NCBI GenBank assembly: GCA_963709345.1
Contig: CAVPVX010000011.1
Location: forward strand, 256,001 to 320,000
Length of the DNA stretch: 64,000 nucleotides
Direction of reading: 5' to 3'
Source of the DNA: an uncultured Actinomycetes bacterium
GTDB taxonomy: Bacteria > Actinomycetota > Thermoleophilia > UBA2241
Below the pieces are notes generated by a model that was not told the DNA's origin, did no database searches, and saw only the letters and a program-made list of their open reading frames with translations. Made by a program: the position numbers and the translations under genes. Numbering within the stretch: position 1 is the first letter of the stretch; every line of letters starts with the position of its first letter. Positions 382-62,113 of the stretch are shown one piece after another.

Positions 382-1980
382 ATGAGCACCAACATGAGGG
401 TCCTGGCCCAGGGCGACCTCGCGCCCGAGTGCCTCGCGTACCTTGAGGGCGAGGGCCTGCGGGTGGAGGTCGTCGCATCCGGAGACGACGAAGCGCTTCT
501 GCCGGCGATCGCGGGCTGCGACGCGCTCATCGCCGCCCCGGGCAACGCCGTCGGCGCCGCTGCCCTGCGCGCCGGACGGCTGCTGCGGGTCGTCGGCCGG
601 CCCGGAGCCGGCGTCGACGACATCGACGTCGCCGAGGCGACCAGGCAGGGCGTCCTCGTCGTCCATACCCCGCAGAGCAACGTGGTCTCCGAGGCGGAAC
701 AGGCGCTGGCGATGCTGCTCGCCTGCGCCTGCGACCTCGCGCGCACGGACGCCGACGTCAGGGCTGGCCGCTGGCAGAAGGGCCGCTGGGCCGACTCCGG
801 CGTCGAGGTGTGCGGCAAGACGCTCGGGCTCATCGGCCATGCGGAGAGCTCGGCGCTGCTCGCCGAGGCCGCGGGAGCGCTCGGCATGCGCGTCCTCGCC
901 TGCGACCCGCGCGCGTCCGCCGACGCGTTCCAAGGTTCGGCGTTGGCGCGAGACGACCCGGAGCGCGTCTATCGCGAATCCGACTTCGTGCTCGTGCAAC
1001 TGCCCGCCGGCGCCGAGACCGAAGGCGTCGTCGGCGCCGGCGAGTTCGCGCTCATGAAGGCCGGCGTGCGGCTCGTCACCCTGTCCGGCCCCGGAGTCGT
1101 CGACCGGGCGGTATTGCTCGGAGCGCTCGAGAGCGGCAGGGTCGCTTCCGCCGCGCTCGAGGTCTCCGCCGCCGACCTCCAGCCAGGGGACGCTCTGCTC
1201 GCCGCCGACAACGTCCTCTTCACGGCGCACCTCGAGGCGTCGACGGTGGACGCTCGGCGGCGCGCCGAGATGACGGTCGCCGAGCAGGTCGTCGCCGTCC
1301 TGCGCGGCGCCTTCCCCAGCGGCGCCGTCAACGTCCCCGTCGGCGCCGGCGACGACGCCGGCGAACTGATGCCGTACCTGGACCTTTGCACGCAGTTGGG
1401 GCGACTGGCCGTTCAGCTCGCCGATGCTCCCGTGGACGCCGTTACAATCGCATACGGAGGCAGCGTCGCCTACTTCGACACCCGGCTGCTCACGCTCGGC
1501 GTCCTCGCCGGCGTCCTCGCCGGCCGCGTCGACGGGCCCGTCAACTTCGTGAACGCCCAGGGGCTCGCCGAGGAGTGCGGCGTGAGCGCGACGGAGGAGC
1601 GGCAGTCCGACGTCCCCGACTTCCCCCGGCTGATCACGGTCGCCACCGCAGGGCCGAAGGGCGGCGTGTCGGTCGCCGGCACCTCGCTCGGCCGCGAGCA
1701 CAAGCCGCGGCTCGTCCGGGTCTTCGGCGAGGACGTCGACATCGCGCCGGCGCCGCTCATGGCCTTCCTCCGATACGTCGACGCACCCGGCGTCGGCGGC
1801 AAGCTCGGAACGCTGCTCGGCGAGTGGGGCGTCAACATCGGTCACATGTCGGTCGGGCGCGGGAGGCTCGGCAACGAGGCCGTCATGGCGCTCACCCTCG
1901 ACTCACCGCTGTCGCCGGCCCAGATCGACGCCCTGATCGCCGGGTGCGGGTTGGAGTACGCCAGGGCGGTACGGCTGTAG
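382..1980 (+). CDS. D-3-phosphoglycerate dehydrogenase-like paralog with ASB and ACT domains; catalytic and NAD-binding motifs degenerate
   Basis: Colinear with SerA at 3637-5238, but GLGRIG is GHAESS, NVARGG is TLSGPG and DVYPKEP is EVSAADL. Confidence 0.85.
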   Translation: MSTNMRVLAQGDLAPECLAYLEGEGLRVEVVASGDDEALLPAIAGCDALIAAPGNAVGAAALRAGRLLRVVGRPGAGVDDIDVAEATRQGVLVVHTPQSNVVSEAEQALAMLLACACDLARTDADVRAGRWQKGRWADSGVEVCGKTLGLIGHAESSALLAEAAGALGMRVLACDPRASADAFQGSALARDDPERVYRESDFVLVQLPAGAETEGVVGAGEFALMKAGVRLVTLSGPGVVDRAVLLGALESGRVASAALEVSAADLQPGDALLAADNVLFTAHLEASTVDARRRAEMTVAEQVVAVLRGAFPSGAVNVPVGAGDDAGELMPYLDLCTQLGRLAVQLADAPVDAVTIAYGGSVAYFDTRLLTLGVLAGVLAGRVDGPVNFVNAQGLAEECGVSATEERQSDVPDFPRLITVATAGPKGGVSVAGTSLGREHKPRLVRVFGEDVDIAPAPLMAFLRYVDAPGVGGKLGTLLGEWGVNIGHMSVGRGRLGNEAVMALTLDSPLSPAQIDALIAGCGLEYARAVRL

Positions 1981-2047
1981 CGTGACCGCGTGGGCCGCCG
2001 CCCGCCGGCGCCGGCGGGCGCGCGGATGTGCCGCCGGTCCTCGAGCT

Positions 2048-2088
2048 GCTTGTGCATCTGGACACAAGCGGTGCGCATACGCTATGCT
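2048..2088 (+). promoter_or_regulatory. putative sigma70-type promoter (TGGACA-18-TATGCT) overlapped by palindrome GCTTGTG-N8-CACAAGC
   Basis: -35 at 2059-2064, -10 at 2083-2088, inverted repeat at 2048-2069. Confidence 0.5.
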
Positions 2089-2094
2089 TTTGCC

Positions 2095-2124
2095 ATGCAG
2101 GACTCGACTCATCGCCCGTCGTGA
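2095..2124 (+). CDS. putative leaderless mini-ORF MQDSTHRPS
   Basis: ATG 7 nt after the TATGCT box; stop codon abuts a 22-bp hairpin. Confidence 0.3.
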   Translation: MQDSTHRPS

Positions 2125-60414: not shown

Positions 60415-60415
60415 T

Positions 60416-61510
60416 GTGAGGGGCGCGACCGATCTCGGGCCGGCGCGCGTCGCCGAGCTCGACAGCGGTGACATGCTCGGCGCCATCGCCGCGTTGCCGT
60501 GTCAGCTCCGCGACGGGTACGCGACTGCCCGGGAGCGACTCGCCGGGGCCTTCTTCGGCACGTTTCCCGCGATCCCGCCGGCTGCGCCGGACGGGGTCGT
60601 CGTCTGCGGCATGGGCGGCTCGGCGATCGGCGCCGACCTTGTCTTCGCCTGCCTCCCGGACCTCGCCGTGCCGGCGAGTGTCGTCCGCGGCTACGAGTTG
60701 CCGGCGTGGGCGGGACCCGAGACGCTGGTCGTCGTGATCAGCTACTCGGGCGAGACCGAGGAGTCGCTGGCCTGTGTGGCGCATGCGCGCGCGCGGGGCT
60801 GCGCGCCCGTGTGCATCGCCTCGGGTGGCCGCCTGGCCGCTTTTGCCGCCACGGAGGGCTTGCCTCATGTTCCGGTCGCCGGCGGGGGGCAGCCACGGGC
60901 CGCCGTGGGGTCGCTCTCCATGCCGCTCCTGGCGACGCTCGAGGCGGCGGGTCTGTGCCGCGAGCACGCCGGGGACGTCGCCGCCGCCGCCACCCAGCTC
61001 GAGTCCGACGGCGTGAGGCTGGGCGCGGATTCGGACGAGCCGGCCAACGCCGCCAAGGCGCTCGCTCGTCGTCTGAAGGGCCGTCTCGCCCTCGTGTACG
61101 GCGCCGGGCCCACGGCGCCCGTCGCCCGGCGCTGGAAGGGCCAGATCAACGAGAACGCCAAGGCGCCCGCCTTCTTCAACGAGCTCTCCGAGCTCGATCA
61201 CAACGAGATCATGGGCTGGACGAGTCTGAGGCAGGTGACGACGTCCGCCCTCGCCGTGTTCCTGGACGACGAGGGCGCCGGCCCGCGTCTGGCGCGGCGC
61301 GCCGGTCTCACGGCGCTGGAGTACGAGGCGCTGGGCGTCGCCACCGAGCACGTCGTATCTCACGGCGCCTCGCCGCTGGCGCGTCTCTTCTCGCTGGTGC
61401 AACTCGGCGACTATGCGTCCTGCTATCTCGCCCTGCTCTACGGCGTCGACCCGACGCCGGTCGCCGCCATCGAGCGCCTCAAGGACCGGCTCGCCGGCGA
61501 CGCCGGCTGA
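60416..61510 (+). CDS. bifunctional phosphoglucose/phosphomannose isomerase (SIS)
   Basis: GMGGSAIG, SYSGETEE, QPRAA, RWKGQINENAK, ELDHNE. Confidence 0.92.
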   Translation: MRGATDLGPARVAELDSGDMLGAIAALPCQLRDGYATARERLAGAFFGTFPAIPPAAPDGVVVCGMGGSAIGADLVFACLPDLAVPASVVRGYELPAWAGPETLVVVISYSGETEESLACVAHARARGCAPVCIASGGRLAAFAATEGLPHVPVAGGGQPRAAVGSLSMPLLATLEAAGLCREHAGDVAAAATQLESDGVRLGADSDEPANAAKALARRLKGRLALVYGAGPTAPVARRWKGQINENAKAPAFFNELSELDHNEIMGWTSLRQVTTSALAVFLDDEGAGPRLARRAGLTALEYEALGVATEHVVSHGASPLARLFSLVQLGDYASCYLALLYGVDPTPVAAIERLKDRLAGDAG

Positions 61511-61516
61511 CTCGCC

Positions 61517-62113
61517 GTGCCCGACGCCGTCGTCGCGCTCGCACTGGCCGGCGCCGGCGATGCGTCGTGCCGCATCGCCGGGGAACTCTTCCCGGAAGCC
61601 GGCCTCCTCTCGTTCGGCCCGGCCGATGCGCGCCCGCCGGCGCCCTTGGCCGGGCGCCTGTTCGAGGCGTTCGGGCGGCTGGCTCGCGGGGAGTGCATCG
61701 GTCTCGTGACGCCGGCGCTGTGGTGCGGTCCGGCCGGCGGTGCCGCCGCACCAGGGCCGCCGGCCCCAAACGCCCTGCTCGCGCTCTCCGACCACGTCAA
61801 TCTCGAGCTGCGCGGCCCGCTCACCGGCCGCTGGCCGGCCGGCGCGCCGCGCGACTTCCCGAGTATGAGCGGCATATATCAACCCGCCGTCGTTCGTGCC
61901 CGTGGAGGGCCTCGGGTATACTCGTCCGGCGTCGTGGCGGCGGGTGTCGCCGACGTCCGGCGTCTCACGCGTTTCGAGGCCCGGGTGGTCCGCGAGGGGG
62001 GCTTCTGCATCGTGACCGATCTCCTCGTTCCGGTCGCCATCGTCGCTGCGTACCATGGCCTGAAGCTGGCTGCCTGCGGGATCCCGTGGGGGTCGGCACG
62101 CGACAGAGAGTGA
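61517..62113 (+). CDS. degenerate purine-nucleoside phosphorylase-like protein
   Basis: [33 protein letters not shown] match PNP; catalytic motifs absent. Confidence 0.65.

Follow-up and report, generated by a model that had tools for sequence, protein, structure and literature searches.

The window analyzed here is a stretch of 64,000 nucleotides, positions 256001 to 320000 of contig C11, from the genome of an uncultured actinobacterium (G000; 3.1 Mb, 98% complete, ~70% G+C). Searches with Pfam and NCBIfam across the window yielded an ordinary housekeeping gene map. Four of its open reading frames (ORFs), all on the forward strand, encode homologs of enzymes from which catalytic motifs appear to have been lost: a SerA-like ORF (382 to 1980) with the architecture of a type I phosphoglycerate dehydrogenase (PGDH), an eroded short-form HisG, designated HisG_S* (31470 to 32093), an LCP-like ORF (51949 to 53610), and an ORF resembling a purine nucleoside phosphorylase (PNP) (61517 to 62113). 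An earlier note on this DNA had suggested that these are either a lineage-wide set of pseudoenzyme partner subunits or frames kept open only for translational coupling. All four frames are indeed open at these positions, and each has a canonical, intact paralog elsewhere in G000. The most noteworthy part of the locus is the pair formed by HisG_S* and the neighboring HisZ, which persists in genomes where other genes of the histidine pathway were not found.

The window begins with the end of ilvC, followed by the SerA-like ORF, a class V aminotransferase gene (2358 to 3623, forward strand; 84 to 95% identical in relatives), and the canonical serA (3637 to 5238, forward strand). Next come putA on the opposite strand, leu and ilv genes, and dnaE, and then hisZ (30274 to 31473, forward strand), the short hisG, hisD (32090 to 33349, forward strand), hisB, hisH, hisA, and hisF. 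A Sua5/YciO-family gene, phzF, rpiB, glyA, a GT4 transferase gene, the atp operon, and murA lead to a canonical LCP gene (49880 to 51952, forward strand), the LCP-like ORF, and sugar-nucleotide genes; pgi, the PNP-like ORF, ahcY (62121 to 63383, forward strand), and mtnA follow. The tight junctions described in the earlier note are present at most of the ORFs. Four-nucleotide overlaps join hisZ to HisG_S* (GTGA), HisG_S* to hisD (ATGA), and the LCP gene to the LCP-like ORF (GTGA), and only 6, 7, and 40 nt separate pgi from the PNP-like ORF, the PNP-like ORF from ahcY, and ilvC from the SerA-like ORF, respectively. The SerA-like ORF lies 378 nt from the next gene, however, and that junction is not tight.

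Alignment with canonical relatives bore out the loss of active-site motifs in all four ORFs. The family assignments are of graded strength: strong for SerA, moderate for HisG, based on profile and fold for PNP, and based on several weak but concordant lines for LCP. A drift in amino acid composition, also noted earlier, is visible in the comparison with paralogs, where the GARP fraction was 0.40 and 0.42 for the SerA-like and LCP-like proteins and 0.30 for both SerA and LCP. Across the four ORFs this fraction was 0.40 to 0.51, compared with a window mean of 0.358, but the drift is not unique to them, as some functional neighbors are equally rich.

Three sets of genomes were used for comparison: 18 from the same genus, 81 from the order (one family, ten genera), and five relatives with synteny in this region; individual genomes are designated by G and genera by g. 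All of the relatives are metagenome-assembled genomes (MAGs), so that a gene reported as not found in them is not necessarily absent. Across the relatives, the four ORFs are syntenic and mostly uninterrupted, and the motif losses are common to the relatives as well. The SerA-like ORF was found in 11/18 same-genus genomes and HisG_S* in 16/18; the LCP-like and PNP-like ORFs were each found in 17/18 and extend across the order, to 75/81 genomes (7/10 genera) and 76/81 genomes (10/10 genera), respectively. In the five syntenic relatives, the four ORFs are 43 to 84% identical to those of G000, compared with 75 to 97% for most neighbors.

Ratios of nonsynonymous to synonymous substitution rates (dN/dS, or ω), estimated by the NG86 method with 200 bootstrap replicates against the closest relative (G004) and two others (G005 and G002), were 0.25 to 0.59 across pairs. 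They are well below 1 in each pair, which indicates purifying selection. Against G004, the ratios were 0.26 (0.19 to 0.33) for the SerA-like ORF, 0.27 (0.18 to 0.41) for HisG_S*, and 0.25 (0.19 to 0.32) for the LCP-like ORF, while SerA, LCP, hisZ, and hisD gave 0.11 to 0.21. Against G005 and G002, the four ORFs ranged from 0.33 to 0.59 and the comparison genes from 0.09 to 0.42. Bootstrap replicates reached 1 in a single case, the PNP-like ORF against G005 (1% of the 200). These ratios show the four proteins to be constrained, though less so than their neighbors. Each thus seems to combine homology to an enzyme, missing motifs, purifying selection, and an active-looking paralog, the properties by which a pseudoenzyme would be recognized from sequence.

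HisZ and the eroded short HisG

The HisRS-like regulatory subunit encoded by hisZ scores above the curated cutoff (TIGR00443, 285.9 bits versus 271.65). The 207-aa HisG_S* passes the cutoff for PF01634 (46.1 bits versus 25.5) and fails that of the NCBIfam hisG model (42.9 versus 75.75). Where relatives from other families of the class carry the phosphoribosyl pyrophosphate (PRPP) loop as VDL-ATG-TLRENGL, the HisG_S* of this genus reads VEL-SRLA. An alignment to the solved structures 5m8h and 7z6r and to seven class relatives revealed that HisG_S* also lacks the Ser-Arg-Lys segment that matches Arg56 and Lys57. In the Psychrobacter arcticus HisG_S, the R56A, R32A, and C115S variants are catalytically impaired, and Asp179 is among the positions of the active-site mutants (excerpts of PMC9734150). 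Elsewhere, G000 encodes a long-form HisG whose PRPP loop is intact (contig C7, 227565 to 228047; 148 bits). The downstream hisD is the sole copy in G000. For the remainder of the pathway, hisI (PF01502) lies on contig C2 of G000, and no match to PRA-PH/hisE (PF01503) was obtained genome-wide at an E value of ≤0.01.

Loss of the PRPP loop extends well beyond G000. The loop is absent from all 17 HisG_S* sequences of the genus that cover the region and present in all seven relatives from other families of the class. It is also absent from 13/14 further short HisG proteins drawn from this genus and five others; loop-less forms occur in g1, g13, g14, g16, and g18, that is, in five of the six genera aligned, and the g15 representative alone keeps the loop. 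Within the genus, the mean column identity is 82% for HisZ and 70% for HisG_S*.

The occurrence of the two HisG forms was compared with that of other histidine genes. In other families of the class, hisZ accompanies a canonical short hisG (177 to 185 bits), and genomes with only the long form are without hisZ. Most genomes of the present family, by comparison, hold a long form (approximately 142 to 154 bits) together with a weak short form (36 to 91 bits). No hisF was detected in 20/81 genomes, 14 of which have only the eroded short HisG, 4 only a strong HisG, and 2 neither. Thus, 16 of the 20 are without a strong HisG match, and HisG_S* is kept in 14 of those 16, namely, nine g16 genomes and G012, G014, G043, G050, and G080 of g1. 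In four of the g16 genomes (G051, G053, G064, and G065; 92 to 100% complete), hisI, hisF, and hisB were all not found. G051 retains the order dnaE-hisZ-hisG_S*-hisD, with the Sua5-family gene following directly. G014 has full-length hisZ and HisG_S* together with a broken hisD; the stretch fetched from this genome yielded no match to hisB or hisH and just a weak, 26%-identical match to hisF. The rarity of a strong HisG in genomes negative for hisF, most of which nonetheless keep HisZ and HisG_S*, is the best evidence that the eroded HisG does not act as the enzyme of the pathway and is retained for another purpose. As judged by gene content, the long HisG tracks the histidine pathway, and HisG_S* does not.

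A side observation from the same g16 genomes concerns hisD: G051, G053, and G064 each have two full-length homologs (435 to 447 bits), and G065 has one full-length and one partial homolog.

The pair closely resembles the hetero-octameric HisZ/HisG_S enzyme known from P. arcticus, Acinetobacter baumannii, and Lactococcus lactis (5m8h, 7z6r, and 1z7m). As in that system, hisZ lies upstream of a short hisG and overlaps it by 4 nt, HisZ clears its cutoff, and residues 43 to 197 of HisG_S* align to the solved catalytic subunit. A model of the HisZ-HisG_S* complex scored 0.67, compared with 0.01 for the best control; 116/157 solved complexes and 2/215 mismatched pairs reach this score. Three runs agreed on at least 88% of contacts, and the pLDDT of the partners was at least 87. 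The modeled interface, between residues 184 to 189 of HisZ and 79 to 85 of HisG_S*, falls at the nodes formed by Tyr105 of HisG_S and Asn185 and Lys186 of HisZ (excerpts of PMC9734150). Because a complex of this kind has already been solved, the model indicates likeness to it rather than binding, and a textbook pair may score well through memorization by the predictor. Two features set the present pair apart from the enzyme: HisG_S* lacks both the PRPP loop, including the equivalent of Asp179, and the equivalents of Arg56 and Lys57, and the pair coexists with a long HisG and persists where hisF, hisI, and hisB were not found. Searches of an open-access library turned up no paper describing a short HisG eroded in this way or a HisZ retained where the pathway is missing. 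If the eroded HisG still sits on HisZ, the two would form a noncatalytic, probably histidine-binding complex whose role is independent of histidine synthesis.

The SerA-like, LCP-like, and PNP-like ORFs

The SerA-like protein contains the four domains of a type I PGDH (PF00389, PF02826, PF19304, and a weak ACT match, corresponding to 2-Hacid_dh, the NAD-binding domain, PGDH_inter/ASB, and ACT). It aligns end to end with Mycobacterium tuberculosis SerA1 (PDB 1ygy; residues 7 to 517, E = 1.5e-71), and its gene is placed after ilvC, as is serA. It differs from a type I PGDH in its TIGR01327 score of 401.6 bits, which is under the equivalog cutoff of 454 (the canonical SerA, with all motifs present, scores 619.6), and in lacking the NAD glycine loop and the catalytic Arg: GIIGLGRIG in SerA corresponds to GLIGHAESS, and VARGG corresponds to LSGPG. 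The catalytic residues are those assigned in the PGDH literature. The GxGxxG motif is kept in 0/10 SerA-like sequences, the catalytic Arg in 2/10, and the catalytic His in 4/10 (G000 and three of nine orthologs), and all three are present in 7/7 canonical SerA sequences; G000 also has an acidic residue at the Glu position.

In a quick IQ-TREE phylogeny, rooted at the midpoint and flagged for compositional heterogeneity, the 11 SerA-like sequences, including that of G000, form one clade (SH-aLRT, 100) nested within the SerA clade of the genus itself, branching later than G006 and G003. The stem of this clade has a length of 0.44, compared with 0.01 to 0.07 for canonical SerA branches. Unlike an ordinary type I PGDH, the SerA-like protein is thus a within-genus duplicate evolving at approximately 10 times the rate of SerA. 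Paralog-to-paralog identity is uneven: the catalytic domains stand at 0.50, whereas ASB reaches 0.69 and ACT 0.74. The better conservation of ASB and ACT suits a ligand-sensing or oligomerizing subunit and not a catalyst. The protein may therefore act through its ACT/ASB half, as a ligand-sensing or hetero-oligomerizing subunit of SerA.

The canonical LCP of the window is a glycopolymer transferase with a LytR_C domain (PF03816, 147.7 bits; PF13399; TIGR00350, 140.2 bits), and G000 contains two full LCPs. The LCP-like ORF directly follows this gene, downstream of murA, and its product has a membrane anchor, a degenerate LCP domain at approximately residues 57 to 240, and a LytR_C-like C terminus. 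No Pfam match was above the threshold, with PF03816 at an E value of 0.03 (15.5 bits). Among orthologs, PF03816 reached 3e-4 in G004, the closest, and 0.04 in two distant ones, and LytR_C matched the C termini of three distant orthologs with E values of approximately 1e-3 to 1e-2. The LCP-like family aligned with an LCP-domain alignment in hhalign at 76% probability (E = 2.3e-5, 159 columns), a value reached only after 12 orthologs from other genera were added (the shallow family alignment gave E = 0.00099); four unrelated controls gave E values of 0.12 to 0.72. A whole-protein comparison of the family with the upstream LCP sequence alone gave E = 0.056, and a profile search of PDB sequences returned no match at an E value of ≤1. 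The best Foldseek match was TagT (E = 2e-4). The AlphaFold model is poor, with a mean pLDDT of 55.7 and an N-terminal domain below 50; therefore, fold matches serve as a lead only. A search with language-model features (Atlas) linked the protein, with a score of 0.94, to clusters in which 17 to 32% of members bear PF03816. The best 120 of 284 metagenomic relatives are unnamed or labeled "hypothetical protein" and have no Pfam domain.

Taken together, these results make it likely that the LCP-like protein descends from an LCP. Its anchor, LCP-type domain, and LytR_C-like C terminus resemble those of actinobacterial proteins such as LcpA of Corynebacterium glutamicum (excerpts of the review PMC7831098). 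It differs from them in having no Pfam match at threshold and in lacking, in an alignment of modest confidence, the pyrophosphate-site Arg and Asp at the aligned positions, conserved residues that are necessary in LCP transferases according to the same excerpts (PMC7831098). The LCP-like protein may pair with the upstream LCP at the membrane.

The PNP-like protein comprises 198 aa, within a stop-to-stop frame of 200 codons, and both of its ends are truncated by comparison with solved PNPs (241 to 294 aa). It had no match to PF01048 in the genome scan even at an E value of ≤1; an NCBIfam PNP model matched with E = 0.002, and PRK08202 gave 17.6 bits against a cutoff of 218. A profile of the family matched PNPs in the PDB with E = 1.6e-8, and the Foldseek matches listed were all PNP-family phosphorylases (E values of approximately 1e-6, probability of 1.00, TMq of 0.47 to 0.60), with a query model of pLDDT 68 and pTM 0.73. 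The likeness to trimeric PunA-type PNPs (3la8, 8swu, 1vmk, and human PNP) lies in the core fold and a central conserved block, and the trimeric PNP fold core is probably kept. The differences, besides length, are substitutions of both the acidic residue and the Met in the GPxxET...GMS block and a terminus that falls short of the C-terminal segment; in human PNP, the residues concerned are Glu201, Met219, Asn243, and His257. Among 12 sequences, 51/198 columns are invariant. Three PNP-family genes are present in G000, one of them of the PunA type with motifs intact. The best 120 of 379 metagenomic relatives are unnamed or labeled "hypothetical protein," with no Pfam domain. The gene downstream, ahcY, encodes an adenosylhomocysteinase (TIGR00936, 649.7 bits). 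A further PNP homolog was observed in another family of the class (G021, contig C7, 107696 to 109518), where a 289-aa frame lies directly after an LCP gene and is 36% identical to residues 47 to 190 of the PNP-like protein.

Other features of the window

The four ORFs had been contrasted in the earlier note with true relics of sucCD, LuxR, TetR, and IS110 genes in the same window. This contrast was not confirmed, with faint traces of two of these genes detected in otherwise unassignable stretches on the reverse strand: a GerE/LuxR helix-turn-helix at 5153 to 6208 (E = 0.0027) and the N terminus of an IS110 transposase at 26275 to 26541 (E = 0.0017). Relics of sucCD and TetR were found neither by Pfam searches of 73 six-frame fragments nor by tblastn of 116 fragments against G000 itself, which returned one 39-aa match on another contig.

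Several other genes are unevenly distributed among the five syntenic relatives. putA (6538 to 10410, reverse strand) has no counterpart in their syntenic regions, and the 613-aa ORF beside it (10617 to 12458, reverse strand) has no Pfam match and finds counterparts in just two relatives, at 42 to 43% identity. An FAH gene (19876 to 20676) was matched in G006 only, and an acyltransferase gene (21745 to 22854) was matched in none of the five; the same holds for a 467-aa ORF with good codon periodicity and no Pfam match (23241 to 24644, forward strand). Two small overlapping ORFs at 20831 to 21549 (reverse strand), flanked by the FAH and acyltransferase genes and matching a Gp49-like family (PF05973, E = 1.1e-5) and an Xre/HTH family (PF13560, E = 2.4e-5), have the look of a toxin-antitoxin pair. 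The ATP synthase a-subunit gene (41633 to 42775, forward strand) encodes a long N-terminal extension, with the Pfam domain starting at residue 192 of the frame, and it ranks with the more rapidly evolving genes of the window (43 to 74% identity in relatives).

Explanations for the retention of the four ORFs

We regard it as likely that the four ORFs arose by separate duplications of ordinary enzymes, lost their catalytic motifs, and were kept by selection as folded proteins, most likely with binding, scaffolding, or regulatory roles. The parents would be a phosphoglycerate dehydrogenase, the short subunit of ATP phosphoribosyltransferase, an LCP cell-wall transferase, and a trimeric purine nucleoside phosphorylase. 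Each copy would have lost cofactor, substrate, or catalytic motifs and taken up a role beside the active paralog or its pathway. Synteny, purifying selection, and motif losses common to relatives support the part of the earlier proposal that saw conserved pseudoenzymes. They do not form a single lineage-wide set, since the four differ both in age, from within-genus to order-wide, and in pathway. A function as partner subunits is supported only by the HisZ-HisG_S* model, through its likeness to a solved complex. The claim that such a situation would be unusual is overstated for dead paralogs as such, which are a known and common phenomenon (excerpts of PMC5201418), with the HisZ/HisG case excepted. 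The prozyme of S-adenosylmethionine decarboxylase in Trypanosoma brucei is likewise a dead duplicate retained beside an active paralog; activation of the active partner has been shown there (excerpts of PMC5201418), whereas an interaction of the SerA-like protein with SerA, or of the LCP-like protein with LCP, is a proposal here.

A number of observations weigh against this interpretation. The four ORFs evolve 2 to 5 times faster than their neighbors at nonsynonymous sites, and the ω of the canonical LCP against distant relatives (0.33 to 0.42) overlaps their range, which places the four at the rapid end of a continuous range of rates. The NG86 estimates of dS are distorted under strong GC3 bias, with distant pairs near saturation, and motif loss was read from alignments alone, of which that of the LCP-like protein is modest in confidence. 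Split copies occur among the MAGs (the LCP-like ORF in G010, G011, G014, and G016; the PNP-like ORF in G008, G012, and G017), and one frameshift interrupts hisZ in each of G003 (L085), G008 (L017), and G011 (L083), with 64 to 71% identity on both sides. Such interruptions may reflect either genuine decay or errors in the MAGs; in G012, the canonical SerA is split as well. The SerA-like ORF was not found in G003, G006, and G011, so some members of the genus can dispense with it; in G006, its site is taken by another gene, which encodes a sensor. Neither hisZ nor HisG_S* was detected in G009, which is 95% complete, and the invariant residues of HisG_S* are not enriched at the modeled HisZ interface (7/24 versus 75/207 overall).

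Purifying selection on all four would also be expected if they were still enzymes, diverged toward new substrates or cofactors or with rebuilt loops. In the SerA-like protein of G000, the catalytic His is still present and the Glu position is occupied by an acidic residue, and the eroded HisG is the sole HisG homolog found in 9/11 g16 genomes. Among SerA-like orthologs, however, that His is lost in 6/10 and the GxGxxG segment is different in each lineage, and such variation at catalytic positions is unexpected for a conserved new active site. Likewise, four of the g16 genomes with only the eroded HisG (G051, G053, G064, and G065) also lack hisI, hisF, and hisB and so would have no use for phosphoribosyl-ATP, and the PNP-like protein is without the C-terminal part of its fold (198 versus 241 to 294 aa). 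Continued catalysis by the four is therefore improbable. Still less probable is that the proteins are functionless, either as slowly decaying redundant duplicates or as frames open merely for the coupling of downstream genes. The tight start-stop overlaps, the elevated nonsynonymous rates, the GC-rich composition, the split copies, and the genus members in which the SerA-like ORF or HisZ and HisG_S* were not found would all suit such an account. It predicts dN/dS values near 1 and no conserved residues, though, and the observed ratios are well below 1 in each pair, with many invariant columns, such as the 51/198 of the PNP-like protein; coupling as the sole reason for the open frames is accordingly rejected. 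Furthermore, the LCP-like and PNP-like ORFs span 7/10 and 10/10 genera of the order, the domains of the SerA-like protein are unevenly conserved, and HisZ and HisG_S* are intact in G014 despite the later his genes being deleted or broken and persist in g16 without the pathway. We give very little credence to the idea that the four are ordinary divergent orthologs made to look eroded by fast evolution of the lineage and strict thresholds. In its favor, the HMMs derive from model organisms from which this uncultured lineage is far removed, and the neighbors pmm, pgi, and manC also fall under some equivalog cutoffs. Controls within the genome already contradict it, as canonical paralogs score normally in G000 (SerA, 619.6; long HisG, 148; LCP, 151.7) and retain their motifs, as do class relatives, and identity between relatives is 80 to 95% for housekeeping neighbors but 43 to 64% for the four ORFs.

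Within the interpretation of the four ORFs as retained pseudoenzymes, two more specific roles can be put forward tentatively, though we hold the proposal to be rather doubtful as it stands. HisZ and HisG_S* might constitute a family-wide complex of two dead homologs that has departed entirely from histidine biosynthesis and acts as a sensor or regulator responsive to histidine or a related ligand, retained over a long span of evolution and also in two genera whose members are without other genes of the histidine pathway. The SerA-like protein might, by the same reasoning, be a newly arisen ACT regulatory subunit of SerA, confined to one genus.

Eukaryotes have supplied most of the well-known examples of dead enzyme paralogs, and to our knowledge bacterial ones have seldom been dated. 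The window described here contains four that differ in age. The SerA-like ORF can be dated inside a genus and would offer a natural time series in which catalytic sites erode while regulatory domains stay. The LCP-like and PNP-like ORFs represent order-wide families that can now be linked to known folds. For annotation, a "hisG" beside a "hisZ" in this lineage is no sign of histidine prototrophy. In the HisZ/HisG_S* pair, the catalytic partner of an already noncatalytic regulator appears to have lost its own motifs, and the pair outlives its pathway. If it has a new role, it would provide a testable case in which a complex of metabolic enzymes has been converted to another use.

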